Position numbers and translations under genes: made by a program. Under the pieces are notes generated by a model, which was not told the DNA's origin, did not search any database, and worked only from the letters and a program-made list of their open reading frames with translations. This document shows, one piece after another, positions 1 through 49,589 of a DNA stretch of 64,000 bases; positions within the stretch are counted from its first letter, which is position 1, and the number at the start of each line of letters is the position of its first letter. The stretch lies in sequence record PP301341.1, one strand, 5' to 3'. The DNA comes from Escherichia phage UE-S5b.

Positions 1-2321
1 CCACTGGTATTCTTACCAACAAACAAGCCATTGCCCGTAAGTTTGGTGTTAAGCAGAATGAGGTTGTTTACTTTGCTGTAGGTGTAGACTTAGGGGAATA
101 CAAGGTCATTTATGATAAGACTACCCAGCGAGCTTACTCATTACCTGCAGACCTTGGTTCAGGGGTTACTGCTGTAAGCCTTAATACTGCCGGTGTGTTA
201 GTTCACTCTACTGGTAATGTTGACCTGGGTGCACTAGCTGTTTCACGAGGAGAGTTTATAACAGTCCCTGGGTCCTTCTCTTTGGGTTATGAGATTAAAG
301 TAAAGAATGAATGTCTTGAATACCAGGGTGGGTTGTATCGATGGGATGGCGCACTGCCAAAGGTTGTAGATGCTGGGTCTGTTCCTGATATTGGTACAGG
401 AAAGTGGCTGAGCGTCGGTGATGCAGCCCTGCGCAGCCAGATTTCAGACCCGGATGGTGCGTCCAGTTACCCTGAATTGCAGATGGCAAGATGGCGTGAT
501 GAGGGTGATGTTCGAGGCTGGGGTGCTAAAGGGGATGGTGTAACAGATAGTACGGAGAATATAGCTGCTTCACTAAATTCTCAAAAAGCTGTCGTAGCAT
601 CAGACGGTGTATTCTCTAGTTCTGGTATTAATAGTAATTACTGTAACTTAGACGGTAGAGGCAGTGGTGTACTAAGTCACCGTTCAAGTACAGGTAACTA
701 CTTAGTATTTAACAATCTACGCTCAGGTCGCTTAAGTAATATTACGGTAGAAAGTAATAAGGCGACCGATACCACTCAAGGGCAGCAGGTATCTCTTGCT
801 GGTGGCAGTGATGTTACTATAAGTGATGTTAATTTCTCAAACGTTAAGGGCGCTGGTTTCAGTTTAATCACATACCCTAATGATGCACCCTCTGATGGGC
901 TTATGATTAAAGGCATTCGAGGTAGCTACTCCGGCTATGCTACTAATAAGGCGGCTGGATGCATACTTGCTGATTCCTCGGTTAACTCCCTCATAAATAA
1001 CGTCATTGCTAAGAACTACCCTCAGTTCGGGGCTGTAGAACTGAAAGGTACAGCCAGTTATAACATAGTCAGCAATGTTATAGGGGCAGACTGCCAGCAT
1101 GTAACTTACAACGGTACAAAAGGGTCAATAGCTCCCTCTAACAACCTTATCAATGGGGTAGTGGCTAATAATCCTAAATATGCAGCGGTTGTTGCAGGCA
1201 AAGGTAGTACCAACTTAATCTCAGATGTGCTTGTAGATTTCTCAATCTCTGACGCTAGTCAGGCTCACGGTGTTACAGTAGAAGGCTCTGATAACGTAAT
1301 AAGCAATGTGCTTATGTCAGGATGTGATGGTACTAACTCTTTAGGGCAAGCTCAAACTGCTACAATTGCGCGCTTTATAGATACAGCTAATAACAACTAT
1401 GCGTCTGTATTTCCTAGCTACAGTGCTACAGGTGTTATTACTTTCGAATCAGGTTCTACCCGTAACTTCGTAGAGGTAAAGCATCCGGGAAGGAGAAACG
1501 ACCTTCTCAGTGCTACTGGTACTATTGAAGGTGCAGTTACTATTGACGGCACTAGTAATAGCAACGTAGTGCACGCACCTGCCTTAGGACAGTACATAGG
1601 TAGTATGTCAGGTCGGTTCGAATGGCGGATTAAGTCCATGTCACTTCCGTCAGGCGTTCTTACCTCGGCTGATAAATACAGAATGCTTGGGGATGGTGCT
1701 GTGTCATTAGCTGTAGGCGGGGGTACTTCTTCTCAAGTTCGCCTATTTACTTCTGATGGTACTTCTCGGACAGTATCACTCACCAACGGTAACGTGCGTC
1801 TTCCTACCAGTAGCACAGGTTATTTGCAGTTAGGTTCTGATGCAATGACCCCAGATAGTACTAATACATACGCATTAGGTTCCGCAAGTAGAGCATGGTC
1901 TGGCGGTTTTACTCAATCAGCATTCACTGTTGTCTCAGATGCTAGGGATAAAACAGAGCCTCTTAATATCTCAGATGCTTTACTGGATGCTTGGTCTGAA
2001 GTTGACTTTGTGCAGTTTCAGTACTTGGACAGGATTGAGGAGAAGGGTGCAGACTCAGCCAGATGGCACTTTGGTATCATCGCTCAGCGAGCTAAGGAGG
2101 CTTTCGAACGTCACGGCATAGATGCACATCGCTATGGCTTCCTGTGCTTCGACAGTTGGGATGATGTATACGAGGAAGATGCCAATGGCTCTCGTAAACT
2201 GATTACACCAGCAGGTTCCCGCTACGGTATTCGTTACGAGGAAGTACTGATATTAGAGGCTGCGTTGATGCGGCGTACTATTAAGCGTATGCAGGAAGCA
2301 TTAGCTGTTATGTCTAAGTGA
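1..2321 (+). CDS. tail fibre/tailspike protein, 5'-truncated at window edge, with C-terminal intramolecular chaperone (peptidase S74-like) domain
   Basis: Frame 3 is open from position 3 with no stop, so the ORF-track GTG start at 195 is not the real start. Ser/Thr/Gly/Asn-rich repetitive beta-rich body typical of fibre/spike proteins. C-terminal SDARDK motif (1935-1952) followed by about 125 aa resembles autoproteolytic chaperone domains of T5 pb1 and K1F endosialidase. Confidence 0.7.
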   Translation, partial: TGILTNKQAIARKFGVKQNEVVYFAVGVDLGEYKVIYDKTTQRAYSLPADLGSGVTAVSLNTAGVLVHSTGNVDLGALAVSRGEFITVPGSFSLGYEIKVKNECLEYQGGLYRWDGALPKVVDAGSVPDIGTGKWLSVGDAALRSQISDPDGASSYPELQMARWRDEGDVRGWGAKGDGVTDSTENIAASLNSQKAVVASDGVFSSSGINSNYCNLDGRGSGVLSHRSSTGNYLVFNNLRSGRLSNITVESNKATDTTQGQQVSLAGGSDVTISDVNFSNVKGAGFSLITYPNDAPSDGLMIKGIRGSYSGYATNKAAGCILADSSVNSLINNVIAKNYPQFGAVELKGTASYNIVSNVIGADCQHVTYNGTKGSIAPSNNLINGVVANNPKYAAVVAGKGSTNLISDVLVDFSISDASQAHGVTVEGSDNVISNVLMSGCDGTNSLGQAQTATIARFIDTANNNYASVFPSYSATGVITFESGSTRNFVEVKHPGRRNDLLSATGTIEGAVTIDGTSNSNVVHAPALGQYIGSMSGRFEWRIKSMSLPSGVLTSADKYRMLGDGAVSLAVGGGTSSQVRLFTSDGTSRTVSLTNGNVRLPTSSTGYLQLGSDAMTPDSTNTYALGSASRAWSGGFTQSAFTVVSDARDKTEPLNISDALLDAWSEVDFVQFQYLDRIEEKGADSARWHFGIIAQRAKEAFERHGIDAHRYGFLCFDSWDDVYEEDANGSRKLITPAGSRYGIRYEEVLILEAALMRRTIKRMQEALAVMSK

Positions 2322-2400
2322 GTAATACTGGTACGGTTAGATCAGTAGAGTTGGTTAACAGTAGCCTACGTACTACCAGGCTATTACTTATCTAGGTATA

Positions 2401-2430
2401 AAACCCCGCTCAGGCGGGGTTTGTTTTTAT
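2401..2430. terminator. bidirectional rho-independent terminator
   Basis: Hairpin ACCCCGC-TCAG-GCGGGGT preceded by an A-run and followed by TTTGTTTTTAT; sits between the end of the + tail fibre gene and the end of the - gene 2447-3073. Confidence 0.6.
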
Positions 2431-2446
2431 CTATTAATAATATTTC

Positions 2447-3073
2447 TTATATAGAGTTTACTGTTTGCATTGCCCTAATTGATACTGCTGTTAGGGTAAT
2501 TACTTGTCCTGAGATATTAAACATACCTAACTGAATACCGTCTACCATGAAAGGGTCAGTTGAACCAAGTGTGTAAGTAGCCAGTACGTTATCTCTGTTA
2601 GCAATGTCTGTACCCTGTACTTTAACACTAGCATCTGAACCTACTATCGTAATTCCATTGGTTCGTCTTGTTTGTGTTCTCCATTCCCTTGCTGTACCTG
2701 CACCACCTGCAATAATTCCTGATATACGAACACTGAACATTACCTGGGTATTCCTGGTTCTAATGGGGAACTTAAGATTTCCTTCTTCAATTGTTAGTGC
2801 TGCTGTACCTCCAGGTGATTTAGTTATCCCTGGTAATGAAAAGTAATTGAACCAGGATTGGTCATTTACTGCCTGGCTCCCGGTCCATGTATACAAGTCC
2901 AGAAGNAATGTGTCTTCTAACTCTGTTGGTGGGAAAGGTAGTAGTTCTGGGGGGATCTCTGAGATGTTATTAGCAGAAACTATTCGTTCCCCATAACTTC
3001 CCACGACCAACAATCCCCCCTTCATTTTGCACACAACATCCNTACCACTTTGGAAAATATCTTTAATAGACAT
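2447..3073 (-). CDS. hypothetical beta-rich protein (possible tail/adsorption accessory), antisense to the late operon
   Basis: ORF 2447-3100; ATG at 3073 preceded by GAGGT (5 nt spacer), whereas the track start at 3100 is GTG. Contains two N-derived X residues. Confidence 0.45.
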   Translation of the reverse strand: MSIKDIFQSGXDVVCKMKGGLLVVGSYGERIVSANNISEIPPELLPFPPTELEDTXLLDLYTWTGSQAVNDQSWFNYFSLPGITKSPGGTAALTIEEGNLKFPIRTRNTQVMFSVRISGIIAGGAGTAREWRTQTRRTNGITIVGSDASVKVQGTDIANRDNVLATYTLGSTDPFMVDGIQLGMFNISGQVITLTAVSIRAMQTVNSI

Positions 3074-3197
3074 AGTTACCTCGCAGTTGATACCAGACAC
3101 TATGTCTGGATGTATCCCATCATACTAAGTATTATCTAAGAGTCATCTTATGATACGACCCTATTGGGGTTCTTAACTTTACAACTACGGTAATATT

Positions 3198-3527
3198 ATG
3201 AATGAATCGGGCGAACTGCTTCTAGTCAGACTGGAGGAACGATTGAAGACTCTGTTTGAGAATCAGACGAGAGACAGACAGGACCGTGAGAAACTGGAGG
3301 AAACTCTGGGAGAATTACGGGATTCAATCAATGACATAGGCAATAGACTAAAAAATGTGGAGGATAGCTTAGCTAAGAATGAACCTACTATTGAAGAGTT
3401 CATCACCATTAAGCATAAAGTTGTTGGTGCTGGAATTTTTGGTAAGTGGGTATGGGCTGGAGCAGGTGCAATTATTGGTGTATTGGCTGCTGCAAGACGG
3501 GAGATATTCGCATGGTTCGCAGGCTAA
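3198..3527 (+). CDS. coiled-coil protein with C-terminal glycine-zipper transmembrane helix (possible lysis regulator/holin-like)
   Basis: N-terminal charged heptad-rich 75 aa, C-terminal VVGAGIFGKWVWAGAGAIIGVLAAA hydrophobic helix; immediately upstream of the lysis genes. Confidence 0.5.
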   Translation: MNESGELLLVRLEERLKTLFENQTRDRQDREKLEETLGELRDSINDIGNRLKNVEDSLAKNEPTIEEFITIKHKVVGAGIFGKWVWAGAGAIIGVLAAARREIFAWFAG

Positions 3528-3772
3528 AAAGAAAAGTAGAGTTAGTACCTAACTGGAAAAGNTGNTGGAANTGGGCATCCATTCANATTAGTACNNTTGG
3601 TTTANTTCTATTNTCNGCTNTAGATATNATCCAACCAATGGTGACAGGATTACCTCGTCACATCTTGGAAGATATTCCCCATGGTTCCAATATTGCAATC
3701 GCACTGTTTGCCTTAAACATCATAGGCAGATTAATACGATTCCGACCAAAGGAAGATTCACATGAAAGCTAA
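3512..3772 (+). CDS. putative small holin (two predicted TM segments); sequence contains multiple N
   Basis: ATG at 3512 preceded by GGGAGA; basic N-terminus MVRRLKRK then two hydrophobic stretches (second is SNIAIALFALNIIGRLI); overlaps the endolysin start by 11 nt. Ambiguous bases at 3540-3630 make the frame uncertain. Confidence 0.35.
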   Translation: MVRRLKRKVELVPNWKXXWXWASIXISXXGLXLXXAXDXIQPMVTGLPRHILEDIPHGSNIAIALFALNIIGRLIRFRPKEDSHES

Positions 3773-4886: not shown

Positions 4887-7157
4887 ATGGAACACCAAGA
4901 CACTTTTAAGCCTTTACCAGACCCGGCTCAATCAGAGAAGTTAACGGACTGGAAGAAGGAACCAAGTATCCAATTACTGAAGGGTGATTTGGAATCTGCT
5001 AAACCTGCTCACGATGCAATCATGGCACAGATTCGTGAGTGGAATGATTTAATGGAAGTAAAGGGTAAGGCTAAACCCCCAAAGGTTAAGGGACGCTCGC
5101 AAGTCCAGCCTAGACTGGTTCGCCGTCAGGCAGAGTGGCGTTATGCTCCATTGTCTGAACCATTCCTCTCGTCTAACAAACTATTTAAGGTAACTCCGGT
5201 TACTTTTGAAGATGAGTTAGCTGCACGCCAGAATGAGCTAGTTCTTAACTACCAATTCCGTACTCAGCTTAATAAAGTAAAACTGGTAGATGATTACGTG
5301 CATAGTGTCGTAGATGACGGTACTGGTATTGCTCGTATCGGTTGGGAACGTAAGACTATTAAGATTAAAACAGAAACTCCAGTCTTCCAGTTGTATCCAA
5401 TTGAGAACCAGGAACAAGCAGATGTTCTCCAACAGGCTTTGCAGCTTCAGGCAGAGAATCCCCGTGAGTATGACGAAACAATGCCAGAAGATATCAAAGA
5501 AGCTGTTAACTACTTCAATGAAACTGGAGAAGCTACTTATGCAATTCAGACAGGGGTCACTGAAGTAGAAGTAGAAAAAGCACTGGTTAACAGACCTACC
5601 GTTGAAATGCTTAATCCTAATAACGTAGTTATTGACCCGAGCTGCAATGGTGATTTGGATAAGGCTCTGTATGCAGTCATTTCCTTTGAGACTTGCAAAG
5701 CAGACCTTATGAAAAACAAAGACCGTTATCACAACCTAGATAAAATTGACTGGGAGAGTTCCAGCCCCATTACTGACCCAGACCATGAAAGTAAAACCCC
5801 TAGCGATTTCCAGTTTAAGGATGCACTTCGTAAGAAGGTAGTTGCTTATGAGTACTGGGGATTCTACGACATCAATGATGATGGTTCACTGGAACCAATT
5901 GTTGCTACCTGGATTGGTTCTACTCTTATTCGTATGGAGAAGAACCCATTCCCAGATGGTAAGTTACCATTGGTAGTTGTTCCTTATATGCCTCGTAAAC
6001 GTGAACTCTATGGTGAAGCTGATGCTGAATTGCTAGGAGATAACCAAGCAATTCTTGGTGCAACCATGCGTGGGATGATTGACCTGTTGGGCCGAAGTGC
6101 AAATGGTCAACGTGGTTATCCTAAAGGGATGTTAGATACCCTGAACCGTCGTCGATACGATGATGGACAAGACTACGAATATAACCCAATGCAGGGCAAT
6201 CCTAGTCAGGCCATTATGGAACACAAGTTCCCTGAGTTACCCCAGTCGGCAATAGTAATGACTCAGATGCAAAACCAGGAAGCAGAAGCACTAACGGGTG
6301 TTAAAGCATTCTCGGGTGGTGTAACTGGTGAAGCTTACGGAGATGTAGCTGCTGGTATTCGTGGTGTACTAGATGCAGCATCCAAACGTGAGATGGCAAT
6401 CCTTCGTCGATTAGCTAAGGGTATGGCAGACATTGGTACTAAGATTTGTGCAATGAATGCTGTGTTCTTATCTGAGAAAGAAGTAGTACGTATTACTAAC
6501 GAGCAGTACGTAGAGATTAACCGTGAAGACCTTAAAGGTAACTTCGACATTGAGGTTGATATTAACACTGCTGAAATTGATAACCAGAAGTCCCAGGATT
6601 TGGGCTTCATGGTTCAAACACTAGGCAACACAGTTGACCAGTCTATTACGTTATCTCTTGTAGCTAAGATTGCAGAACTTAAACGTATGCCAGACCTTGC
6701 TCATGAGTTACGTACATGGCAACCACAACCAGACCCTATGGAAGAACAGCTTAAGCAATTGGCAATTCAGAAAGCACAGCTTGAGAACGAAGAGCTGCAA
6801 AGTAAGATTGCACTCAATATGGCTAAGGCTAAAGAGGCTGCTTCTAGTGGTGACCTTAAAGATCTGGATTATCTGGAACAGGAATCTGGTACTAAACATG
6901 CTCGTGACATGGAAAAACAAAAAGCACAATCTCAAGGAAACCAGAACCTTCAGATAACTAAGGCGTTGACAACACCTACTAAAGAAGGTGAAACTACCCC
7001 CAACATATCTGCTGCTGTTGGATATAACGCTTTGACTAATGGGAACTCTATACCAGAACGTGACTTAGCTGCACAACAAGACCCAGCTTATTCACTTAGT
7101 TCCCAATTCTATGACCCTAGCCAAGACCCAGCATCGGCTCTTGGCATGAACTTGTAA
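4887..7157 (+). CDS. portal protein (N4 gp59-like)
   Basis: 756 aa, position between lysis genes and capsid genes, size matches N4 portal; assigned by synteny and size rather than a specific motif. Confidence 0.75.
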
Positions 7158-7170
7158 GGCAGACCTTCAC

Positions 7171-7515
7171 ATGAGTAAAGAATCAACAATCGCAGGACTG
7201 GAACATCGACTGGAAGCTGCTAAAGGTGCAGTTGCACACGCAGAAGATGTACGTAAACTTTTGGAGTATCCACTGTTCCGTAAAGTAATTCTTCGTCAGT
7301 TCTGTGTGGAAGATTGTGCACGTTACGTGCAGGAGTCTGGTGACCCACTGCTTGAACCTAATAACCGTGCAGATGCATTGAACATGGCTCAAGCTGCTGG
7401 TCACTTACGTCGTTGGCTCGACCTCGCCATTCGTATGGGNGAAAANGAAGCTGACGTTATTCTNCAGGTAGAAGAAGAACTCGANGCAGTTCGTGCTGAA
7501 CCTGAAGANGAATAA
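7171..7515 (+). CDS. hypothetical head-assembly protein (N4 gp58-like position)
   Basis: 114 aa ORF between portal and scaffold-like gene; 3' end contains N. Confidence 0.45.
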   Translation: MSKESTIAGLEHRLEAAKGAVAHAEDVRKLLEYPLFRKVILRQFCVEDCARYVQESGDPLLEPNNRADALNMAQAAGHLRRWLDLAIRMXEXEADVIXQVEEELXAVRAEPEXE

Positions 7516-7534
7516 TTAACCGGAGATATTTCCT

Positions 7535-8755
7535 ATGACTACGGAAGCTGCAACCACAGCTTCCGACATTCTCGCAATGTCGGATGATGAGATTCTGAAT
7601 ATGGAAGCCCCAGCAGTTATCGCTGAGGAAGATACTTCCACTCAGAACAACCCAGAAACCAACGGCGTACAGACTCCTGATGAAGAAGTTGACACCTCTG
7701 CTGTTGAAGACCTACCAACCGAAGAAACCTCCCCTGAAACCGAACCAGTTGAAGAAGATGNAGCAAATTCTTTAACTTCTGATAAAGTTGATGATAAAGT
7801 TGTTGACACAGAAGTTGATAGTAACGGTAAGCCGATTACTAAAGCTGAACCTTCTACTNCTGAACCNGGCCAGGAACAGAAAGAAGAAGGCAAACAGTCT
7901 GAAGGTCTGCCTGCTGACTTCAACTATAAGGAAGGTTACGAGAAGTTGATGGCTCCTTTTAAAGCTAACGGCAAAATGATTACTCCCCGTTCACCGGAGG
8001 AGGCCATTAGCCTGATGCAGATGGGTGCTAACTATACTCGNAANATGCAAGAACTNCAGCCNTACCGTAAGGTAATGCTGATGTTACAGAACAACGGTTT
8101 AATGGATGAGGACAAACTCTCTTTCCTGATTGACCTGGATAAGAAGAATCCTGAGGCCATTAAGAAGTTGCTCAAAGACTCTGGTACAGACCCTCTGGAC
8201 TTTAACCCAGATGAGGAAATTAACTACCAGGGTGGCAATCACCGTGTTACCGACACCGAAGCAGATTTTGCAACCGAAATTGACGACTTAAAGTCTACTC
8301 AAGAAGGACAAGCTACATTAGGTGTTATTGGCTCGACATGGGATGCTGCCAGTAAAGATGCTCTTTATCAGAATCGTGGCTTACTCCATACGATTCACGA
8401 ACAGCGTGAGAATGGTATTTATGACACCATTGCTAACGAAGTGAATCGTCTTCAGATGTTAGGTCAGATTCCGGTAGGTACTCCGTTCATTCAGGCTTAT
8501 AACTACGTTGGCAACCTCCTTGCACAACAGGGAGCATTTAACCAAGTAGCTAAGCCTGAGCCGGTACAAGCAGTTAAACCAGCGGTTCAGCCGGTAGTGC
8601 GTGTAGCACAACCTAAGCAGACTCTGGCTAACAACGAGCAAGCTAAAGCAGCTTCCCTTAATCGGGCTGCTACACGCAAAGCAACACCTATTGTAAACCC
8701 ACTCGCCATGAGTGATGAAGATTTCGCTAAACTCCCAGTACCGGGTAGTCTTTAA
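7535..8755 (+). CDS. putative scaffolding protein
   Basis: 406 aa, highly acidic Glu/Asp/Thr-rich N-terminus, position immediately upstream of the major capsid gene; several N in the sequence. Confidence 0.4.
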   Translation: MTTEAATTASDILAMSDDEILNMEAPAVIAEEDTSTQNNPETNGVQTPDEEVDTSAVEDLPTEETSPETEPVEEDXANSLTSDKVDDKVVDTEVDSNGKPITKAEPSTXEXGQEQKEEGKQSEGLPADFNYKEGYEKLMAPFKANGKMITPRSPEEAISLMQMGANYTXXMQEXQXYRKVMLMLQNNGLMDEDKLSFLIDLDKKNPEAIKKLLKDSGTDPLDFNPDEEINYQGGNHRVTDTEADFATEIDDLKSTQEGQATLGVIGSTWDAASKDALYQNRGLLHTIHEQRENGIYDTIANEVNRLQMLGQIPVGTPFIQAYNYVGNLLAQQGAFNQVAKPEPVQAVKPAVQPVVRVAQPKQTLANNEQAKAASLNRAATRKATPIVNPLAMSDEDFAKLPVPGSL

Positions 8756-8771
8756 ACAGGAATAATACGAT

Positions 8772-9974
8772 ATGTTAAACTATAACGCTCCAATTGACGG
8801 TCAGAAATCTAGCATTGATGGTGCTGGTTCCGATCAGATGAATACCTTTTACTGGCTGAAGAAAGCTATTATTCAGTCTCGTAAAGACCAGTACTTCATG
8901 CCACTGGCTAACACCATTAACATGCCTAAGAACTATGGTAAGACTGTTAAGGTGTATGAGTACGTTCCACTGCTCGACGATAAGAACATTAACGACCAGG
9001 GCATTGATGCTAATGGTGCTACCATCGTTAATGGTAACCTGTATGGTTCTTCTAAAGACGTAGGTAACATCACTTCCAAACTGCCTCTGCTGACAGAGAA
9101 TGGTGGTCGTGTTAACCGTGTAGGCTTTACCCGTCTGTCTCGTGAAGGCTCCATCCATAAGTTCGGTTTCTTCTACGAATTTACCCAAGAGTCCCTGGAC
9201 TTTGATTCTGATGATCAACTGAAAGAACACCTGTCTCGCGAACTGATGAACGGTGCTGTACAGTTGACTGAAGCTGTTCTCCAGAAAGACCTGCTTGCTG
9301 CTGCTGGTACTGTATTGTATGCAGGTGCTGCTACTTCTGATGCTACCATCACCGGTGAAGGTTCTACTCCGTCTGTAGTTTCTTATAAGAACCTGATGCG
9401 TCTTGACCAGATTCTTACTGAGAACCGTACCCCGACTCAGACTACTATTATCACTGGTTCTAAACTGACTGATACCAAAGTACTTGGTGGTACTCGTGTA
9501 ATGTACGTTGGTTCTGAATTGGTTCCAGAACTGAAAGCGATGAAAGATCTGTTCGGTAACAAAGCATTCATCGAAATTCAGCACTATGCTGATGCCGGTA
9601 CTCTGATGAATGGTGAAGTTGGTTGTATCGACAAGTTCCGTATTATCCAGGTTCCTGAGATGCTGCATTGGGCAGGTGCTGGTGCTCAGGCTACTTCTAA
9701 CCCAGGCTATCGTTCTACTATGGTTGGTGGTCAGGAACACTACGACGTATTCCCGATGCTGGTAGTTGGTGATGACTCCTTCTCTACCATTGGCTTCCAG
9801 ACTGATGGTAAGTCTGTTAAGTTCTCCATCATGACTAAGATGCCTGGTAAAGAAACTGCTGACCGTAATGACCCGTATGGTGAAACTGGCTTCAGTTCTA
9901 TCAAGTGGTACTACGGTATCCTGGTTAAACGCCCAGAACGTCTGGCTATGATTAAGACTGTTGCTCCTCTGTAA
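8772..9974 (+). CDS. major capsid protein (N4 gp56-like)
   Basis: 400 aa, strongly biased high-expression codon usage, followed by a strong terminator, size and position match N4 major coat protein. Confidence 0.75.
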
Positions 9975-14721: not shown

Positions 14722-16686
14722 ATGGCTCAAATTACATGGCGTAATGTTGATGCACCTAACTTCTCTGGAGTAGGTGACAGCATTCGCACATTTGGTAGCA
14801 TGATAGGTAACGCCACCTCCGGCTTAAGTGATGCACTGGGTAATTTCCAGAACGCTGCCAAGCAGGAGGCTGGCAATGCCGTCATGATGAATGCTATGCA
14901 GTATCAAGATCCTACTGAGTACCGTAATGCTTTGGCATCAGGTGCACTGTTTCAGGGGGTTGACCCTTCATTGGTAAACCAGCGTACTCTCCAGAATCTG
15001 GATGAGCGAGCAGGTACACTGCTGACTCAACAAGGACAGCAGGGAACCAATGACTACATTGCATATCGCTTTGGTCGCTTAAAGGATATTAACTCAGCAC
15101 TAGATAATGCTTCTCCGGCTATTCGTTTATTGTCTGAGGCTTATCAGTCTGGTGACCAGAATCGTATTAATACTGCATTGGGTCAGACTCGTGAGGCATT
15201 ATCTACGCTCCCAGCTGACCAACAGTTAGAATTGTTAGGTAGTTTACAAGGACAGGGTAGTGCTGCTATTAATCAGGCGAGCAATCGTTTTGATTTGGGT
15301 GTTGCTCAACGTAATGATGCCGATAGTCAGGCAGCTATGGGTGTAATGGCACAGATTACCCGTGGTGCTGAGAACCCTAATGATGCCCGTCTGTTGGCAG
15401 AAGCATACAGTAAGAACCTGTCTCCAGTTGCACAGGCACGCTTGCAGGGATTACTGGCTAATGCTTACCCGGGTGTTTACGGTAATGGTGTAGGTGCTAC
15501 GTCTGCTCCTGGTACTGCTGGTACTCGTCAGGGTTCACCTTACGATGTTACTTATCAGTTTGCTGGTACATCTACTCCTATTACTCAAATGAGTATTGGT
15601 GATGTAATTAAACACCAGGATGGTATGAAATCGAACCAGGGTGCTTCCCCTGTTGGTGCATTCCAGATTAACCAAGCTACCTTGAAAGACTTTGCCCCCA
15701 AAGTTCTTGGTTCAGATTGGCAGAACCAACCTCTTTCCCCTGAGAACCAGGAGAAGATTGGTAAGGCTATTTTTGAGGCTCGTAAGAATGGTAACCTTAA
15801 AGATACCTGGGCTGCTCTTCCTAACTCTACCCCAGGTGCTTATAAGGATATGACTTGGGAACAGATTAAACCTGTTATTGCCCAAGCTGAAGTAGGGGCT
15901 GACCCATTCGCTCTGATTCAGAATAATCAAGGAAATCAGGCAGTATCCACTCTGGCTCAGGGTATGATTGGTACTCGTTCTATGCAGGATAATACCGGTA
16001 GTCTTAATACTGACTTCCTTGGTACTGTCACTGATAATACTCCAGTAGGTGAAATTGCTAACCGTCTATTAGATGGTGACTTTAAAGGTGCTGACCGTAA
16101 CTGGGTACTGAACCGACTAACTGATATTTCTCAACGTGGAAATATGTCACCAGCTATGGCTGCTGCTGTTATGCAGCGTGCACAGACTGGTGTACCGGAA
16201 GGTTACATTAGCCGTGCTATTGATGCAGTTAACCCATTCATTACCAACGAAGCCGGTAATGGTATGCGTCTTAATGACCGTTTGGTAGATCAGTTAATTG
16301 AGGGTGTACAACGTGGTGAACCACTGGAAGGCAGTGTGCGTAATCTTGGACGTGCTCAAGCTATGCAGAACATTCAGGCAGCACAGACTGCTTATGATGC
16401 TGCTGTAGCTGCACTGACAAATACTCAGAACAAGATTAACACCGGACAAACAGGACTTACTGCATTGTTACCTGCACGTCAGGAAGCTGTTACTAAAGCT
16501 GCTGCAATGCTTCAAGCTGCACAAGCCCAAGTGCAAGCAGACCCAGCTAACCTGGCTCCAAGAGGTTTTCGGTCACAGGNTAGTGTGGACAGAGCACGAG
16601 CCAAGGAAGATGAAGAACGTGCTGCACGTTANCTACGTCAGGCACANGGTTTGCCTGAGTATATGCAACCNAGACAAAATCGGTAA
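14722..16686 (+). CDS. internal virion protein with possible lytic transglycosylase-like motif (N4 gp51-like position)
   Basis: 654 aa; segment GMKSNQGASPVGAFQINQATLKDF is reminiscent of the SLT signature (S..AGA.GLMQ..T); 3' end contains several N. Confidence 0.55.
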   Translation: MAQITWRNVDAPNFSGVGDSIRTFGSMIGNATSGLSDALGNFQNAAKQEAGNAVMMNAMQYQDPTEYRNALASGALFQGVDPSLVNQRTLQNLDERAGTLLTQQGQQGTNDYIAYRFGRLKDINSALDNASPAIRLLSEAYQSGDQNRINTALGQTREALSTLPADQQLELLGSLQGQGSAAINQASNRFDLGVAQRNDADSQAAMGVMAQITRGAENPNDARLLAEAYSKNLSPVAQARLQGLLANAYPGVYGNGVGATSAPGTAGTRQGSPYDVTYQFAGTSTPITQMSIGDVIKHQDGMKSNQGASPVGAFQINQATLKDFAPKVLGSDWQNQPLSPENQEKIGKAIFEARKNGNLKDTWAALPNSTPGAYKDMTWEQIKPVIAQAEVGADPFALIQNNQGNQAVSTLAQGMIGTRSMQDNTGSLNTDFLGTVTDNTPVGEIANRLLDGDFKGADRNWVLNRLTDISQRGNMSPAMAAAVMQRAQTGVPEGYISRAIDAVNPFITNEAGNGMRLNDRLVDQLIEGVQRGEPLEGSVRNLGRAQAMQNIQAAQTAYDAAVAALTNTQNKINTGQTGLTALLPARQEAVTKAAAMLQAAQAQVQADPANLAPRGFRSQXSVDRARAKEDEERAARXLRQAXGLPEYMQXRQNR

Positions 16687-16693
16687 TACTAAN

Positions 16694-16762: not shown

Positions 16763-19700
16763 TTGAACAGGAAACATGCTATGTCAACATTTGACCGTCT
16801 GGCAGGTTTCGCAGACAGCATCACTAATGCTAAGCAAGTCGATGTCTCTACTGCAACCTCTCAGAAGCAAGCTGCACAAGGGCAAAGCCCTTCCCAATTA
16901 ACCCCAGAGAATGCTTACAATCTCCAAACTGGTCGTGTAGGTAATCTTGGAATCGGTGCATTCGAACCAGGTTCACTTCAGGCAGATTTCACGCAAGCCT
17001 CCCCATTAGAAATTCTTAATAAATACGGTAATGAGCAAGGTCTACAGATTCTTAATAGCCGGGCTAATGCTGCTGATGCTGTACGTCAGGACTTATCTAA
17101 ACAACGTACTAACGCAGAAGCATTTGGTGATACTCTTTCTGGTGTTGGTCTTGGTGTTGCTAATACCCTTGGGGGCATTGCTGCTCTTGGCACAGGTCTG
17201 GTCAATGATAATGCCGGGGCATCCATTGCTTCCGGTATGGATTGGCTGAATGAAGGGGTACACAATCTACAGTCTGATGCTCTGAATGCTACCCGTAAGG
17301 TTGTTCAGAATCAGAACCAGATTTCTGCACAAAAGAACCAGAAACTCTACGAAGAAGACATTAAAAATGGAGAGAGCAGTTTGGTTGCCTCTCTGTCTCG
17401 TATTGGTCGTGATGCTTTTGATTCTGTTGCTAATACGCTTGATAATGGTATGGCTGCTACTGATGGGCTGAGTGAAGGTGTTGGTTCTCTCTTTACCGGT
17501 GGTCCATTAATTCGTGGTGTATCTGCACTCGGTAAAGTAATGGTAGGTGGTGATAAAGCTGTTAAGGGTATTACCTTAGCTGCTGAGTTAGGTTCACGTC
17601 CTGCACAGGTTGCATTGTCTGCTGGTCGTGTTGCTGCACCTGCTATTGCAATTGGTGGTATGGAAGCTGGTGGTGCATACCAACAGACTGCTTCCGAAAT
17701 CATGAAGATGTCCCATCAAGAATTGGCAAGTAAGTCTCCTGTTTATCAACAGCATATCGCTGATGGTTTATCTCCTGATGAAGCACGTCGCCAAACTGCA
17801 TCTGAAACGGGTATCATTGCTGCTGGCTTAACTGCTCCGGTTGCTGCTGCTACTGGTCCTCTGGTATCCAAATTTGAACTTAACCCACTTAAGGTAGGTT
17901 CGCTGGCTGGTGCTGGTTCTAACATGCTACGTGAAACAGTAGAAGAAGGTATTCAGTCTGGTACAAGTCAGTTTGCACAGAACAAGGCAATTCAGGGTAA
18001 TGTAGATGCTAAGCGTGATTTGCTTAAAGGTGTCGGTGAGCAAGCAGGTCTTGGTGCACTCTACGGCTTCGGTAGTGCTGGTGTTGCTCAGGCTCCAGGT
18101 ACAACTGTTAAAGCTGTTGGTGCTTCTGCTGGGCCTGCTTTACGTACTACTCTGGCTGGTGCTTCTCTGGTTGGTAGTGCATTAGCAAAAGCTGCCTCTC
18201 CTATTACTAACATCCTGGTTCAGCGTGGCGAAGAAGTTGCTAAGCGTAATGAACAAGCTTCCCCTGTATCTGATGCTACGGTTAATGCTGCTGCACAAGA
18301 AGCTACTGCTCAAGCAGAACAAGCACAAGCAACTGTACAAGAAGCAGTAGATGCAATGGATATTTCTCCTGAAGAGAAAGCTGCTGCTACTCAGTATGCT
18401 GCTGACTTAACTCAGGCAATGAAATTTGACCCAGTAGAACTGGAACAAGCTAACCCAGCAATCCGTGAAGCTGTTTCTGGTTCCACTAACCGTGTTGAAG
18501 CTATTCAGAAGATGGCTGACCTGGTTAATACTGCCGAAGACCCTAACGTTCAAATGGAAGCTGCAATCCAGATGTATGACAACATCATGTCTATGGATAG
18601 CTTCATTAACCGTGATCCTGGTGCTTTAGCTAATCTGGAACAGGGTTCTCCTGCTGCTAATATTGTTGACCAGTTCTCCGGCCTGATGGCTAACGTTCAG
18701 AATACACCAAAGGTACTTCGTGCATTCCGTGCCATCCATTCTATGATTCAGGAACAGGCTGAAGCAGGTAAACTGAAAGCTACCGAAGAAGCTAACCAAG
18801 CCCAAGCAAACAACATTGCTATGGCTGCTGATATGTCTCCAGAAGTACTGGATGCAGACTCAGTGAACATGGTTCTGAAACATGCAAGTGAAGGTAAGAT
18901 TACACTGGGGAATCGTCAGCGTGCTGCCCTGCAATCTGCTGCTGCTCTATTGCAAGGAGCACGAGAATTTGACGCTAAAGCAGAAGAACTAGGCTTACGT
19001 CCTCAAGACATTGTTAGTAAACAGATTAAAACCGACGAGTCTCGTTCTAATGAAGGTCAGTACTCTGCGTTGCAACATGCTAAACGCATTCGTTCTGCGT
19101 ACAACTCTGGTAACTTCGATTTGGCTTCCGCTTACCTCGACGACTTTATGAAGTTCGCCCAGCACATGCAGAATAAGGTCGGAGCGTTGAATGAGCATCT
19201 GATTTCTGGGAATGCGGATAAGAATAAGTCTGTCCATTATCAGGCTCTTACTCCCTCCCGTGAATGGGTACGTAGTCGTACTGGTCTTGGTGTCAATCCG
19301 TATGATACCAAGTCGGTTAAGTTTGCCCAGCAAGTAGGACTGGAGGCCAAAACCGTAGCTGATATTGCTAACGCACTTGCTACGGCTTACCCGGAGCTTA
19401 ATGTTTCTCATGTGAAGGTTACTCCATTAGATTCACGTCTGGACAAGCCTGCTGCCCAGGTAGTTAAAGAGTTCCGTCAAGGTGGTCTTGATGCCACTCA
19501 GTCTCAACAGACCAATGAACCAGTGAATCAGGTTGATGAAACTCCTGCACCAGCGCAAGAGACTACTACTACTGTACAGCCTAAAGCTAAACCAGTGGTA
19601 GAAAATAAGACTGTTCCTGTTAAAGAGGCTAGTTCAAAAGCAGAAGAAGTCTCTACTACTAAGTCTGAAACAGTAGATGCTACCCTCACCAATGAGGATA

Positions 19701-22700
19701 CCACTCAAAAAGTAGCTGAAACTAAAACGGAAATGGAAACAGTTTTCCCTGTCTATAACAATGACAAGACACCGAACCAGTTCCTGAAATCATTTACCCT
19801 GCCGGAAGAACCTAAGTCTCGCACCATTGGTTCTGAATCCCCTTTGACTGATATTAAGCAAGCACTGTCTTCTACTGCACGCTTTGAAGCATTCACTCAA
19901 AAAGAAAATAACGCTCTCACAAGTGATGTGATTAAGCGTTATCAGGACTTAATGGGCTTTGGTGAAACTCTGAAGACTACTCTGTCTGATCGTCTGGCTA
20001 AGTTTCTTGCTAATAAGAACGTTGGTAAACGCTTTGCAGAAGGCACAGAGGCTAACCGTTGGGTAGGTGGTAAGTTACTTAATATCGTAGAGAAAGACGG
20101 AGACACCTTTAAGTTCAATGACCAGTTGTTAGAGACTGCTGTACTTGCTGGTCTGCAATGGCGACTGACTGCTACACAGAATGCTGCTGTTAAAGACATG
20201 AAAGATGTAGCTGCTATTACTGGAGTAGAAGCATCCTTGTTACCTGAAGGTATCCTGGCTGAATTTGAGAATGCTCAGACTCTGGTTGAAGCTACTAACT
20301 CACTGGCTCAAAAGATTGAATCTTACTGGGGATTGAATCGTAATCCTAATGCACCACTGGGTTATACCAAAGGTATTCCAATGGCAATGGCTACAGAGAT
20401 TCTGTCTTCTCTCATTGAGATGGGTGAAGTTAAAGAGTCTATGCTTGATGTGTCTGAGATTGACCCAGACTCTAATAAGACCGTCGGTCTGTATACCATT
20501 GAGAAGCTGGATGATAACGATGCCATTAACAAGTTCCCTACTGCTATCGAGGAAGCTGTTCTCGTAGAACCAGAAGAGAAAATGTACTTTGGTGATGATA
20601 TTCCTTCCGTGGCTCAAACTCAGTTACGTAACCCTGCTGTTAAGAATACCCCAGAGCAGAAAGCTGCTCTTAAAGCAGAACAGGCTACCGAGTTCCGTGT
20701 ACACATGCCGATGGTTAACTTCTATGAAGCATTAGGTCGTGACAACATTCTGGAACTGATGGGTGCTGGTACTCTTAATCCTGAACTGCTGAACGTGAAC
20801 ACTGCTAAGTCACTGGAGGGTAAAAACCTGTCAGTGTCTATGGCATATGATTCCCTGTTCGGTGTAATCAACCAGTTACAGGAACAGGAGAATGGTCTGG
20901 ATACGCCTATTCACTATGGTTACAACATGACCCGTGTAGGTCGTATGCAGATGTTAGGTAAGAACAACCCACAGTCCAGCAAGCTGGTTCGTGAAGCAAT
21001 TCTGCCAACCTTCTCTACTATCGACTTAAGTAATGAAAACAGTCAGACGTTCTCTGATTTCCAGTTAGGTCTGTCTCAGGCATTAGGTATCAAGGTTCAT
21101 AATATGTCCCGTGAAGCTATGTCTGAAAAACTGACCAAAGCTCTGGAAGGTAATTTGAAACCTGCTGTTGATATGATGGTTGAGTTTGATAAGTCCGGGC
21201 ACTTACCAGCCGATGCAGTAGATATTCTTAAGACATCTCTGGGTGGTGATAAATCATTCGTAGCTCTTATGGCTCTTATGGAGTATGCCCGTTACCTGAA
21301 CAGTGATGACCGTGCCAACTTTAATACCCCACTGTACGTTGAAGCCGATGGTGTAACCAACGGACCAATCAACGCAATGGTATTAATGACTGGTGGTAAG
21401 TTCACTTCAGACTGGATTAAGAATACTGCTAAAGGTGGTCTGTTCTTCGGTAAAGCTGGTAAGACTATGAATGAACATCGTTCACAGGATGACAGTGTTG
21501 ACCTGTATGAAGCATCTACCAATGGTCTGCAACAAGCACTTAATGAGTTACGTACTACTTACCGTAACAACGTTCCGGTTATGAACCAAATGAATCATCT
21601 TCAGAAGTTAATGGACCTGTTTATTAAAGACTTTAACCTGAATGAAGACGGTACTCTGGACCTGAAACGTGGTATCGCTAAAAACCCACTGACCATTACC
21701 ATCTATGGTTCAGGTGCTCGTGGTATTGCTGGCAAGATGGTTAGTGCAATTACTGACACCATCTATGAACGATTCAGTGATGTTCTGCAAGCTCGTGCTG
21801 CTGACCCTAGTATTTCCCCAGCTATGGCAATGTTTGGTAAGGAGGCTGCGTCTGAGGCTGATGCTCAGGCTATGCTGGATACTTTCCTTACTTCTATGGA
21901 AGCACTGACTGGTAATGTTCCAGTTATGCGTAAAGGTGAATTGTCTATTCAACAGGTAGAAGGTGCTCTGACTGGTAAGTTAGACCCTCAGAAGTTTACC
22001 GTATCGGGTAATGCCCTGAAGAACTTACAAGAGAACATGCTTCACCTGTTCGTTGAACCAATGCGTACTGGTATCCGGAATACTGTTGGGGAAGGTCTGA
22101 TGCATTCTACTGAGAACTTGCAGAAGGCTACCCAGATTCAGTCTTTGGTTCTACAAGACATGTTCCAACAAGCAGTACAGGCTAAGCTGGCAGAAAAAGA
22201 AAAAGACCCAACCTGGAAGAAGGGTGATTTCTTAACACAGAAAGAACTGAATGAAATTCAGGAATCATTGTCTCCACTGGCTCCAATGATTGAGACTGGT
22301 TCACAGACTTTCTATATTGCTGGTAGTGAGAATACTGATGTTGCTAACCAGGTACTGGCTACCAACTTAGATGACCGTATGCGTGTGCCAATGAGCATCT
22401 ATGCTCCTTCTCAGGCAGGCGTTGCAGGTATTCCATTTATGACCATTGGCACTGGTGATGGCATGATGATGCAGACCCTTTCTACTATGAAAGGTGCTCC
22501 GAAGAATACCCTGAAAATCTTTGATGGTATGAACATTGGTATCAACAACATCACTGATGCAAGTCGTAAAGCTAACGAGGCTGTATACACTTCCTGGCAG
22601 GGTAACCCTATCAAGAATGTTTATGAGTCTTTTACTAAGTTCATGAAGAACGTAGACTTCAGCAAACTATCTGATGAAACCAAACAGGCTATCGCTAAAT

Positions 22701-25700
22701 CTGCTCTGGAATATGACCAGCGTGAAGGTGCTACCGATGACCTGTTACGTGTTGGTGCTGAACAGATTGAACGTAACCTGCGTAATATTGCTCTGGGTGT
22801 AGATATTCGTCACAAAGTAATGAACCAGGTACAGACTACTGTTGACCAGATGGCTGCTGTTGGTGCTCCTTATGTGAACAACGGTAAAATCTCTCTGGAA
22901 GGTCTGACCGTAGACCAACAAGTAGCTAAGCTAAATGAACTGTTCGATGCTGAATTAAACAAACGTCGTGATGCAGTACGTGCTGCTAAAGTAGAACCAG
23001 TGAAAGAAGTGCCAGCAATGGAACAGGTTGGTCGTGTACTGAAGTCTGGTGTACGCCTACTGTCTAATACTGCTATCTCTAAGCTGGCTAAAGAGATGTC
23101 TCCGGAACAGCAAGCAGTACTGAAAGAAGTACAGAAATCCCTTGCTGCTAAAGACTATAAGGTTGTTTACGGTACACCTTCCCAACTGGATGCTTATGCT
23201 ATTGAGAAGAATATTACTCGCCCAGCACCAGAAGATATTGAAGCTGCTGAAGCTGGTAATGCGTATGGTTGGACTAACTTTGAAGATAAGACCATCTACT
23301 TAGTTACCCCTTCCTTAGAGACTCTGGTTCATGAATTGGTGCATGCTTCTACTTTTGAATCTGTACTGGCTCACTATGAGGGTACTCCTAATGAAGCGGT
23401 CCAGAACATTGAAGACCTGATGAACCAGTTCCGTGCTCTGGATGTTAAGGATGAATCCCCGGCAGTTCGGGAAGCATATGCAGATGCTCTTAATACTATT
23501 AACGGTCATTTATCTAATGGCTTTATTGAGCCAGCAATGGCTAAAGCTGCTGCACTGAATGAGTACATGGCATGGGGTTTAACCAACCGTGAACTGATTA
23601 GTAAGCAGAAGAAAACCACTGCACTTAAGACTATGGTTCAGGCTGTATATGAAGCAATTAAACGTCTGGTATTCGGGCGTAAGAAAGCACCAGCTAATGC
23701 AGATGATATGTTCTCTGGCTTACTGTTTAACTCGTCCGTAGTTATGCGTGGGCAAGCTCCTACTGCTGCTGTAGCCAAAGATACTACTCTGTTCCATAAC
23801 AAAACGTATGGTGACAATACTCGTCTGGAAGAGCTAGGGAAAACCTTCGATAAACTGATTACTGACTACATTGGTTCTGAACCAGTACAGCAAGTAATTC
23901 GTAAAGGTAAGTTCTCTGATGCAGTGGTTAATGCGACTAAAGTAACTCGTGATGTTCAGGCTCATGGCTTCACTATGAATATGCAGGAACAACGTCTCTT
24001 TACTAACATTGTTGCTGCTCTGGCTACTGAGGCTGCTATTAATCCTGCTGCTCTGGCTCGTGCGCAGGAATACTACACACATGTTACTAAGAACCTGACC
24101 GTTGAGTCATTCATGNCTGACCCAGATAGTACTAACCCTGCTGACCGTTACTATGCACAGCAGAAGTTCGATACCATCATGGGTGCTAACAACATTGAGT
24201 TTGATTCACAAGGTCGTTCCTCCTTACTGCCTACCTTTATTGGTCTGGCGATGGTAAGTGAAGAGGTACGTAAAGTGCTGGCTGATATTCCAGTTATGAA
24301 AGTAGACAAGAAATCTGGCAATACCGCTGATGCAATGCTGACTAACATCGGTACTGCTGCAATGGCTAGTCTGAATGCTCGTGTAGCAGGAGATACTAAA
24401 GCTACCAACGTACAGGAAGGTATGGATGCACTGGCTCAGACAATCATGCAGACCAGTCTTAATGCACAATCCTTCTATGATTCCGTTGCTACTCCTACGG
24501 GTAATGCTATTGATCGTGCTAACCAGTATCTGGTGGACTCTATTGATGTACTGTCTACCCGTGCTTTAGAAGGTGCTCGTGAAGTTGCAGCTAATACCAA
24601 GAACCCGTTGGTTAAAGGTGCTGCCCATGCTGCACAATTAATAGCTGCTATTGCTACAGAGAAGAATGGTGCAATCGTAGCCGAAGGTGTTATGGCTGCA
24701 ATGAACCAGGGTAAGGTATGGCAACCTTTCCATGACCTGGTTAATGACTTAACTGGTCGTACTAAGAGCAATGCTTCTGTATATGATTTGATTAAAGCAG
24801 TGCGTGCACAGGTACAGGCTGACCGTCAACAGTTCCGTGAACATCTGCCCACCACTATTGCATCTAAGTTCAGCCGTAAGCTTACTAATGATGAGTGGAA
24901 AGCAATGCATACCGGTATGGGTAAAACCGACTTAGCTGTTCTGCGTGACACTATGTCTCTGGGTGAAATTCGTGACTTGCTGACTGACCAAAAGATTGTT
25001 GACCGTGAAGTGAATAAGCTGGAAGCAGATTTGCAGAAACAAGCAGGACGTAACTGGCCTTTGATTAGCCGTAAATCTAAGCAACTGGCTCAGTACATGA
25101 TTAATGGCACAGTTGGTAATAACTTGCTGCGTAATGCTACTGCAATCTCTCGTATGCTGGGTGAACGACAGGCTGCACGTTCTACTGTAGACGTAGCTCA
25201 ACTGGATAAACTGATTACTCTGTATGCACTGGAAGCAATGAGTAAGACTGACCGTGAGATGTTATCTTCACTGGCTCAATCAGAGATTGAAGGCATGGAC
25301 TTCGCTACTTCTTATCTGGTTGGTCAGCGTAAAGATGAAATGGCTAAAGCCAAATCTGATACTCGTGCAACTCTGAACCAGTACAAAGGGTATATTCCTG
25401 GTGAGACTAAACAGGGTGTTAACTTGATTGTTGCTGAAGATAGTCAGTTTGCTGATTTGATTGAGAAGTCCTATGTACGTCTGGGTACTTATCAGGGTAG
25501 CTCTGCTAATCGTGGTCCAGCACGTAGCTACTACTTTGCACCGGTACAGGCACAGGCTCCATTCTCGCAAGGTATCTTACAGAACGTTCGCAATACTGCT
25601 GGTGGTGTAGACCTTGGTACAGGCTTTACGATGGGTACAATGGTAGCTGGTCGTATCACTGACAAGCCTTCTGTAGACCGTATCACTAAAGCACTGGCTC

Positions 25701-28376: not shown

Positions 28377-28620
28377 TAGTACTATTTACCCATAGCTGGG
28401 AGGCTTTTGGTTCTTACCACGAAGACAGTCCACGCTGACNAGNCTTGGGATTGATAGTCCCGTTCCTGTGGTAATTACTCAGGCTAGGATTTAAGGAGTT
28501 CCTATTCTCCAGCGAAATTCCCGTCGANGGGAATAACAATACAATAGCAGNCACTGGACTGTCTTACCAGTGTTGTCTTTAGAGTGCNATGCAATCAGGA
28601 CTATGTTACTGCTGAATGGG

Positions 28621-28694
28621 TGTCCACTACTGGATTTGAACCAGTGACTTTCCGATTATTAGTCGGTTGCTTTCCCCGTCTAAGCTAAGTGGAC
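28621..28694 (-). tRNA. tRNA gene, canonical cloverleaf, anticodon loop CUAAUAA (apparent anticodon AAU, identity uncertain)
   Basis: Hand fold of - strand: acceptor GTCCACT/AGTGGAC (7 bp perfect), D-arm GCTT/AAGC, T-arm ACTGG-TTCAAAT-CCAGT, anticodon stem CCGA/TCGG. Confidence 0.55.
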
Positions 28695-28700
28695 TTATTA

Positions 28701-28776
28701 TGGTTACCCAGGCAGGATTCGAACCTGCGTCCTAGTTGGTTTACTAGTGGGGCTTTACCACTAAGCCTACTGGGTA
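28701..28776 (-). tRNA. tRNA gene with encoded CCA; anticodon loop appears 6 nt (AAACCA), identity unresolved
   Basis: Hand fold: acceptor TACCCAG/CTGGGTA, D-arm GGCT-TAGTGGTAA-AGCC, T-arm GCAGG-TTCGAAT-CCTGC, 3' ACCA; anticodon stem CTAGT/ACTAG leaves a 6 nt loop. Confidence 0.55.
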
Positions 28777-48648: not shown

Positions 48649-49589
48649 TCAGTAATAGTCTCACCAGGAATTAACTTACGGAATTGGATAAAGTGAAGCA
48701 GGTTACCTGAGTACAGATTCCCTTCTTTATCCATGGATGTAACACCTTGTTCCCATGTAACTGGGTTCATGTTATTTACATACTTCTCACCAAGGTTCAT
48801 AGGTGTAGCCTGATGTTCCGTTGGGGAAGCATGAATAGGTTGGTTTTCCACTAACTTAGCGAATAAGCCAAGGTCTTCCTCGATAGTAGATGGTCGTCCT
48901 TCGAAGTTGTTATAGGAAGCACGAGCACAGCGTGCAGCACTTACTTTGAGAAGTAGTCCATGCACTTCTGCATCACTTGGTTCATCGCGTGTAACTCGAT
49001 TGCGTTTGCAGAAATTGTAAGCCCCAACACGGTCAATATGAGCAATNTANGGCANATGCCATTGCCCATATGGTAATGCTCTNGGTGTNCTTTCTTCCTG
49101 TGCCTTACGCATTGCTTGAGCCAGTTCACGAATCTCTGGTTGTGCATCTTTGTGGTCACGCAGTCCATAGAAATTAGCCCAGCTGGTTGAAGTTACCACT
49201 ACACGAATATGCGTGAATGGTTCCAGAATACGGTTAACAATCTGCTTATGTACTTGCCCACGTCGTAGCTGTTCTGCATACACAGCAGCAGCAGATGCAG
49301 CGTTATCCCAGATAAACTTAGCATCCTCAATCTCCATAGGAGTGAGTTCTTCTTCTGCTTGCATACCTTTCTGGTTCTTGCCCCAGTGACTAGGCATCAC
49401 TGGTTCATTACGAACTTGTTCGATGAACTTAGCCGTGGGAATAGCACGACTGCTTGANGCATTACGGTTGAATACACGGTGNGTCATAAACTCACTGTGA
49501 ATGAATCGGGGATAAACCAATTCAAAGGTAGTAATACGAGTTCCTGTTTCTGGGTGAACGGAATCTGCAATGACAGTTGCCTTAATCAT
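48645..49589 (-). CDS. thyX: flavin-dependent thymidylate synthase (ThyX-like)
   Basis: ThyX-type motif HRVFNRN.SSSR (RHR-x7-S like); 314 aa; several N. Confidence 0.6.
   Translation of the reverse strand: MIKATVIADSVHPETGTRITTFELVYPRFIHSEFMXHRVFNRNXSSSRAIPTAKFIEQVRNEPVMPSHWGKNQKGMQAEEELTPMEIEDAKFIWDNAASAAAVYAEQLRRGQVHKQIVNRILEPFTHIRVVVTSTSWANFYGLRDHKDAQPEIRELAQAMRKAQEEXTXRALPYGQWHXXXIAHIDRVGAYNFCKRNRVTRDEPSDAEVHGLLLKVSAARCARASYNNFEGRPSTIEEDLGLFAKLVENQPIHASPTEHQATPMNLGEKYVNNMNPVTWEQGVTSMDKEGNLYSGNLLHFIQFRKLIPGETITE

Follow-up and report, generated by a model that had tools for sequence, protein, structure and literature searches.

A K5 lyase-type tailspike gene with a C-terminal S74 chaperone domain at the start of a DNA segment of Escherichia phage UE-S5b

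The stretch of Escherichia phage UE-S5b DNA that we analysed (record PP301341.1; 64,000 nucleotides, hereafter the window) opens inside a long gene, which an earlier note, made from the sequence alone, had described as a tail fibre ending in an autoproteolytic intramolecular chaperone domain. This raises the questions of what the gene encodes, whether its C-terminus is a domain of this kind, and how such a protein would be carried by the virion. The sequence identities, domain matches, alignment of the catalytic dyad and genomic position described below were established directly; we consider it highly probable that the gene encodes a four-module secondary (branch) tailspike of a G7C-like N4-type coliphage (genus Gamaleyavirus) that carries a self-cleaving chaperone. 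The features of the locus are collected in Table 1.

Table 1. Features of the first gene of the window and of the adjoining DNA (aa, window numbering)
Feature	Position	Strand	Support
K5 lyase-type tailspike CDS, 5'-truncated	1..2321	+	frame +3, 772 codons plus TGA; comparison with UE-M6 WWE95585.1
Attachment module of the G7C gp63.1 / CBA120 TSP1-TSP3 type, aa 1-87	3..263	+	PDB matches; Bp4 DNA
Tail_spike_N (PF18668), aa 79-140	237..422	+	Pfam, E=8e-12, 45.5 bits against a cut-off of 25
Body of the K5 (heparosan) lyase type, aa 172-645	516..1937	+	matches to 2x3h, Y10025 and K1-5 gp46
Intramolecular chaperone domain, Peptidase_S74, 128 aa, 14.8 kDa	1935..2318	+	Pfam, PDB, IME177 and K1-5 matches
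SDARDK, S74 dyad Ser645 + Lys650	1935..1952	+	alignments to 3gw6 and 3gud
DNA match to Gamaleyavirus Bp4 orf13	3-260		79% identity
DNA match to Kayfunavirus IME177	404-2337		93.7% identity
DNA match to K1-5 gp46	543-2325		91.9% identity
Intrinsic-terminator-like hairpin, AAACCCCGC-TCAG-GCGGGGTTT then T-run	2401..2432	+	between the lyase gene and ORF 2447-3100(-)
DNA match to the Bp4 backbone resumes	from 2443		91% identity

Extent and identity of the first gene

Translation of positions 3-2321 of the plus strand in frame +3 gave 772 open codons followed by a TGA stop at 2319-2321, and the two remaining forward frames of the gene region contained many stops. The window holds 64 N bases, none of them within 1-2321. 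Over its first 6 kb, the window shares 99.7% identity with Escherichia phage UE-M6 and 99.0% with both UE-S5a and UE-M3, three members of the genus Gamaleyavirus (Schitoviridae), and the "K5 lyase" of these three phages (PMC11927229) is essentially the same gene, with the same position and neighbours. The UE-M6 counterpart (WWE95585.1), annotated as "K5 lyase", is 784 aa long and begins 34 nt upstream of window base 1; from its residue 13 onward it is identical to the window protein at 770 of 772 positions, the two differing residues being K373 and T590 in window numbering. Since the UE-M6 coding sequence has this length and start, 12 codons are missing from the window gene, and the truncation by the window edge pointed out in the earlier note is real at the 5' end, but amounts to 34 nt, or 12 codons, only. 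Residues Ser645 and Lys650 of the window numbering are thus Ser657 and Lys662 of the full-length protein. An internal GTG at position 195 was rejected as a gene start, since no stop interrupts the frame from base 3 on and the UE-M6 start lies upstream. Seven ORFs of 41-78 aa that are nested in 1-2321, on both strands, were judged to be spurious because they lie wholly inside this strongly supported gene.

The central region of the protein corresponds to the sequence of the KflA crystal structure (PDB 2x3h, "K5 lyase" of coliphage K5A), which runs through the catalytic region and the C-terminal portion as far as the cleavage serine. Residues 69-542 of 2x3h match aa 172-645 with E=2.6e-279, and the 2x3h chain ends exactly at the equivalent of Ser645. 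In tblastn comparisons, the lyase body and chaperone taken together (aa 171-772) were 92-93% identical to KflA and K1-5 gp46, with values of 92.7% for the K5A K5 lyase (Y10025) and 92.5% for K1-5 gp46. The same body, 91-93% identical, is present in several phages of Kayfunavirus and Vectrevirus, and an 843-aa "tail spike protein" in the PDB (9vvr) matches aa 90-772 almost perfectly; a literature search with the PDB codes 9VVR, 9D80, 9D83 and 9D84 gave no relevant match. The earlier note had considered it probable that the region upstream of the chaperone has receptor-binding or depolymerase activity, and the 92.7% identity to KflA, together with the 2x3h match, allows this body to be named as a K5 heparosan lyase, a specificity that we infer from close homology.

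In PHROGs, the protein falls into tail-spike families (phrog_14895, E=0). Judged by these comparisons of sequence, the first gene encodes a K5 heparosan lyase tailspike and not a fibre. The earlier note was right about the S74 domain, but the product that it called a tail fibre is a beta-helix tailspike. The presence of an S74 domain in K5 lyases was reportedly shown by Schwarzer et al. in 2007. The finding of a K5 lyase gene with an S74 chaperone is correct but already known, the gene being annotated in GenBank and named in the paper on the UE phages (PMC11927229). The word "chaperone" is absent from the text of that paper; its accessible parts name the K5 lyase with no mention of a chaperone domain or of a chimeric build, and do not discuss a branched scaffold bearing both enzymes, the K1 endosialidase and the K5 lyase (PMC11927229).

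The C-terminal chaperone domain and its predicted processing

The proposal of an S74-type domain had been based on an SDARDK motif, located at 1935-1952 and followed by about 125 residues. A Pfam search identified Peptidase_S74 (PF13884, "Chaperone of endosialidase") at aa 645-705, covering profile positions 1-57 of 58 with a score of 52.9 bits (E=4.6e-14), well over the gathering cut-off of 22 bits. The lack of an S74 match, which the earlier note had named among the observations that would speak against its reading, was thus not what the search gave. The coordinates of the motif are exact: bases 1935-1952 (TCAGATGCTAGGGATAAA) encode S-D-A-R-D-K, which occurs a single time in the protein, and the length given for the region that follows agrees with the 122 residues counted past the lysine and the 128 counted from the serine.

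When the last 168 residues were compared with PDB sequences, matches were obtained to the GA-1 neck-appendage chaperone (3gud, its residues 1-120, E=1.7e-23), to the K1F endosialidase chaperone construct (3gw6, E=5.3e-21) and to T5 pb1 (4uw8, E=6.3e-10), as well as to the tail spike/fibre entries 6eu4 and 7y5s. The likeness to the chaperones of T5 pb1 and K1F endosialidase on which the earlier note had relied is thus borne out by 4uw8 and 3gw6. Ser645 pairs with endoNF position 911, which is an alanine in chain 3gw6 (presumably the uncleavable S911A mutant), and Lys650 pairs with Lys916; in the alignment to 3gud, Ser645 pairs with residue 1 and SDARDK with the GA-1 sequence SDERHK. Both the serine-lysine dyad and the C-terminal position of the domain were therefore correctly recognized, Ser645 and Lys650 being aligned with known dyads and the domain forming the last 128 residues of the protein. 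The equivalent dyad of T5 pb1 is Ser1264/Lys1269, and K1-5 and K5 are among the phages presumed to use an S74-type chaperone domain (PMC4690869). The window domain belongs to the same MEROPS/Pfam S74 family as the chaperones of K1F endosialidase (3gw6), the GA-1 appendage (3gud) and T5 pb1 (4uw8), and shares with them a Ser-x4-Lys dyad at the domain start, after an intertwined trimeric stalk, whereas the passenger domains that precede those chaperones (sialidase, appendage and fibre tip, respectively) are unrelated to the lyase body.

The chaperone domain is identical to that of Kayfunavirus IME177 at all 128 positions and to that of K1-5 gp46 at 122 of 128; the latter protein has its serine at the equivalent position and likewise ends in a 128-aa domain. 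The mass computed for K1-5 gp46 is 66.7 kDa for the full-length chain and 52.0 kDa for the chain as far as the serine. A review lists this protein as "67 / mature form 52" (PMC5380687), and a homologous K5 depolymerase, once purified, runs at 52 kDa "after proteolysis" (PMC5696595). Both values equal the mass computed to the serine, which indirectly supports cleavage at this residue. For the window protein, an 82.9-kDa precursor is predicted to give products of 68.1 kDa (residues 1-656) and 14.8 kDa (residues 657-784, full-length numbering), and the chaperone domain is expected to come off once the trimer has folded. With regard to the side of the serine on which the chain would be cut, PDB constructs point both ways, as 2x3h ends with it and 3gud starts with it; in T5 and K1F, the serine leaves together with the chaperone (PMC4690869). 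LC-MS/MS detected the K5 lyase among the proteins associated with the particles of each of the four UE phages (PMC11927229).

For annotation, the first gene of the window can be described as that of a K5 heparosan lyase-type tailspike that lacks 12 codons; cleavage is predicted at Ser657 of the full-length protein. The processed boundary would mark the end of the mature enzyme for experimenters; anti-capsule therapy is a candidate use of K5 depolymerases (PMC5696595).

The N-terminal module and attachment to a branched spike

The N-terminus of the protein resembles tailspikes whose enzymatic parts are different. CBA120 TSP1 (4oj5) matches aa 1-192 (E=4.1e-62), an 859-aa tail fibre protein (4qnl) that we take to be G7C gp63.1 matches aa 1-148 (E=6.3e-49), and further matches were found to 9d84 ("Gp48", over aa 2-155) and to CBA120 TSP3 (6nw9 and 5w6f). 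The alignments to 4oj5, 6nw9, 5w6f, 4qnl and 9d84 all begin at residues 12-14 of these proteins. The module is thus homologous to that of the G7C gp63.1 esterase tailspike and of CBA120 TSP1 from residue ~13, whereas the enzymatic body is a lyase here and an O-antigen deacetylase or glycosidase in G7C gp63.1 and CBA120 TSP1. The similarity to Bp4 orf13 is confined to aa 1-154, and the C-terminus of that protein is different and has no counterpart of the chaperone domain.

The proteins that share the lyase body, in contrast, begin differently. The 843-aa Kayfunavirus tailspikes (IME177; 9vvr has the same length) are 91.7% identical over aa 91-772, while their first ~155 residues, presumably a T7 gp17-type tail-binding N-terminus, have no match in the window protein. 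The N-terminus also differs from that of K1-5 gp46, which consists of a short peptide, MAKLTKP, docking onto a separate adaptor protein (PMC6872550); in its place, the window protein carries ~170 aa formed by the gp63.1/TSP-type module plus the Tail_spike_N domain.

A module of this type enables G7C gp63.1 to attach to the T4gp10-like domain of gp66, the primary spike, and not straight to the virion (PMC6872550). The gene for a primary-spike partner would be located outside the window, on its upstream side; the evidence for it comes only from near-identical genomes. In UE-M6, the protein encoded directly upstream of the K5 lyase (gp010) has a gp66-like N-terminus, matched by 9d80_D and 9d83_D over aa 1-376, and its remainder is an endosialidase with four out of four endosialidase Pfam domains, matches to endoNF structures at E=0 and an S74 domain of its own. 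The possibility that this "endosialidase" is a mis-annotation driven by the S74 domain was rejected, given the matches to all four Pfam domains and to endoNF structures. In G7C-like genomes, the corresponding gene is the second of two spike genes and precedes the lysis cassette. By homology, the window protein would be attached to the virion through the primary spike.

Taken together with what is known of close homologues, from which the lyase specificity, the cleavage and the primary-spike attachment are drawn, these features suggest how the spike could mature and function. The chaperone domains of three nascent chains would associate and template the folding of the intertwined stalk, and correct folding of the trimer would position the Ser657/Lys662 dyad, with Ser657 as nucleophile and cleavage site and Lys662 as general base, so that the chain would be cut at the serine. 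This cut would release the 14.8-kDa fragment and leave a mature spike subunit of ~68 kDa. By analogy with G7C, the mature trimer would dock by its gp63.1/CBA120-TSP-type N-terminal module on the T4gp10-like branching domain of a gp66-like primary spike, the Tail_spike_N domain acting as a linker. The KflA-type lyase body, with its intertwined C-terminal stalk, would then bind the K5 heparosan capsule of E. coli, and the lyase would cut K5 heparosan by beta-elimination at adsorption, making the outer membrane reachable.

Each of these three proposals has a competitor. The spike could bind the tail directly, at the adaptor or portal region, rather than through a gp66-like primary spike, an arrangement for which the location of the partner gene outside the window leaves room. 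We regard it as quite unlikely, given that homology to the G7C gp63.1-type and CBA120 TSP modules extends over the N-terminal ~150 aa, that modules of this type bind T4gp10-like branching domains (PMC6872550), and that the near-identical UE-M6 encodes a gp66-like protein immediately upstream. It is hardly credible that the C-terminal domain escapes cleavage and serves the mature spike as a tip with a structural or receptor-binding role: the chain deposited as 9vvr does include this domain, though a deposited sequence need not mean a modelled one, but both the Ser and the Lys of the dyad are intact in the window protein, its domain is nearly the same as that of K1-5 gp46 (122/128), and K5 depolymerase was purified at the cleaved 52-kDa size.

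The lyase body, for its part, might have kept its fold and chaperone and drifted to a polysaccharide other than K5 heparosan. Approximately 7-8% of its residues differ from those of KflA and K1-5 gp46, two substitutions are private with respect to UE-M6, and the UE phages are reported to infect a UPEC O25:H4 strain for which the accessible parts of the paper state no capsule type (PMC11927229). Such a change of substrate nevertheless appears highly improbable, in that a whole-body identity of >92% to two proven K5 enzymes usually means the same substrate, and the same body recurs at 91-93% in several Kayfunavirus and Vectrevirus phages. A K5 lyase spike that is cleaved at the serine and borne by a primary spike remains the reading that we prefer, and we met no observation at odds with it.

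Mosaic structure of the locus and origin of the cassette

The surroundings of the gene are those of an N4-like phage. On its 3' side lie a convergent 217-aa ORF (2447-3100, minus strand), the lysis cassette and the portal gene, an arrangement also found in other Gamaleyaviruses, Bp4 among them, and a 3456-codon ORF at 16763-27133 has the size of an N4-type virion RNA polymerase, which fits the family assignment. The pattern of DNA matches (Table 1) delimits a lyase-plus-chaperone cassette by two junctions, one at about nt 260-404 and the other at about nt 2337-2443. The first of these falls within the Tail_spike_N domain, which spans the junction between Gamaleyavirus-type and Kayfunavirus-type sequence.

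The same cassette is common to two genera of Autographiviridae, the family of K5A and K1-5, whereas the window belongs to a member of the Schitoviridae. Given DNA identities of 92-94% to Kayfunavirus and Vectrevirus spikes, a cross-family transfer from Autographiviridae is the probable origin of the cassette. The locus would represent a further documented case of a depolymerase-plus-chaperone cassette swapped between phage families and, if this origin is true, a clean natural example of a chaperone domain travelling with its passenger domain.

Mildly notable is the placement of this lyase-plus-chaperone cassette on an N4-like scaffold, beside what in relatives is a K1 endosialidase spike. Each of the two enzymes keeps an S74 chaperone of its own. 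Whether the Gamaleyavirus lineage has built a dual depolymerase apparatus like that of K1-5, with a K1 endosialidase on a gp66-type spike and a K5 lyase on a gp63.1-type spike, is in our judgement evenly balanced; if both spikes are active, a dual specificity for K1 and K5 capsules would exist outside the SP6-like phages.

We also observed that the hairpin downstream of the lyase gene, a strong terminator-like structure at 2401-2422, falls in the 3' junction region of the cassette.

A second depolymerase beside the K5 lyase in UE-M6

In UE-M6, a Gamaleyavirus whose genome is near-identical to that of UE-S5b, a chimeric primary spike gene lies upstream of the point that matches the start of the window. 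Residues 1-376 of its product correspond to an anchor/branching N-terminus resembling gp66, the primary spike of phage G7C, and these are accompanied by a complete K1F-type endosialidase with its own S74 intramolecular chaperone domain. This spike is the neighbour of the K5 lyase tailspike; K1 and K5 depolymerases would thus be paired in the lineage, as they are in phage K1-5.

The 3' flank of the lyase gene

The recombination junction at the 3' end of the lyase cassette contains a hairpin that, since it sits between the convergent lyase gene and 217-aa ORF, could terminate transcription in both directions. The latter ORF gave no Pfam match and is kept in the Gamaleyavirus backbone, its counterpart in phage Bp4 being orf14. 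The corresponding CDS of the related phage UE-S5a bears the note 'gene 9'; a 'G-9 protein', which may or may not be the product of this ORF, figures in the UE phage paper as one of the candidate receptor-binding proteins (PMC11927229). Related records label the 109-aa ORF as 'tail length tape-measure protein T' in some cases and as 'tail needle protein gp26' in others; both names look unsupported, as the ORF matches just one PHROG, whose function is unknown, and scores below threshold in Pfam.

Features in the window and in UE-M6
Feature	Coordinates	Strand	Basis or remark
Hairpin, 9-bp, GC-rich	2401-2432		A-run upstream, T-run downstream
217-aa ORF, convergent to lyase gene	2447-3100	-	phrog_17779 (unknown function)
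109-aa ORF	3198-3527	+	PHROG of unknown function
3456-codon ORF	16763-27133	+	Size and position
tRNA-Ile(AAU), normal	28619-28694		6 nt from tRNA-like gene
tRNA-like gene, abnormal anticodon arm	28701-28776	-	ARAGORN, Infernal, RNAfold
Clusters of N (examples)	3562-3628, 7440-7509, 8041-8062, 16580-16693, 28440-28588, 49047-49089
Chimeric primary spike gene	UE-M6 5899-9546		Upstream of match to window start

Apparently masked bases

The window carries 64 N bases at 62 tightly clustered sites, and when these were counted throughout its length none fell within the lyase gene. The first 6 kb hold 14 N positions, 12 of which coincide exactly with sites at which UE-M6 and UE-S5a differ, and for this reason the sequence looks like the consensus of a mixed M6-like and S5a-like population in which polymorphic sites were masked.

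Large ORF and tRNA-like gene

In size and position the 3456-codon ORF is what would be expected for the N4-type virion RNA polymerase, in agreement with assignment of the window to the Schitoviridae. In the tRNA-like gene, ARAGORN recognizes an anticodon of only two bases, and Infernal scores it at 42.8 bits while skipping the anticodon arm. The fold predicted by RNAfold is a cloverleaf that has a loop of 6 nt (AAACCA), and the CCA end is encoded.
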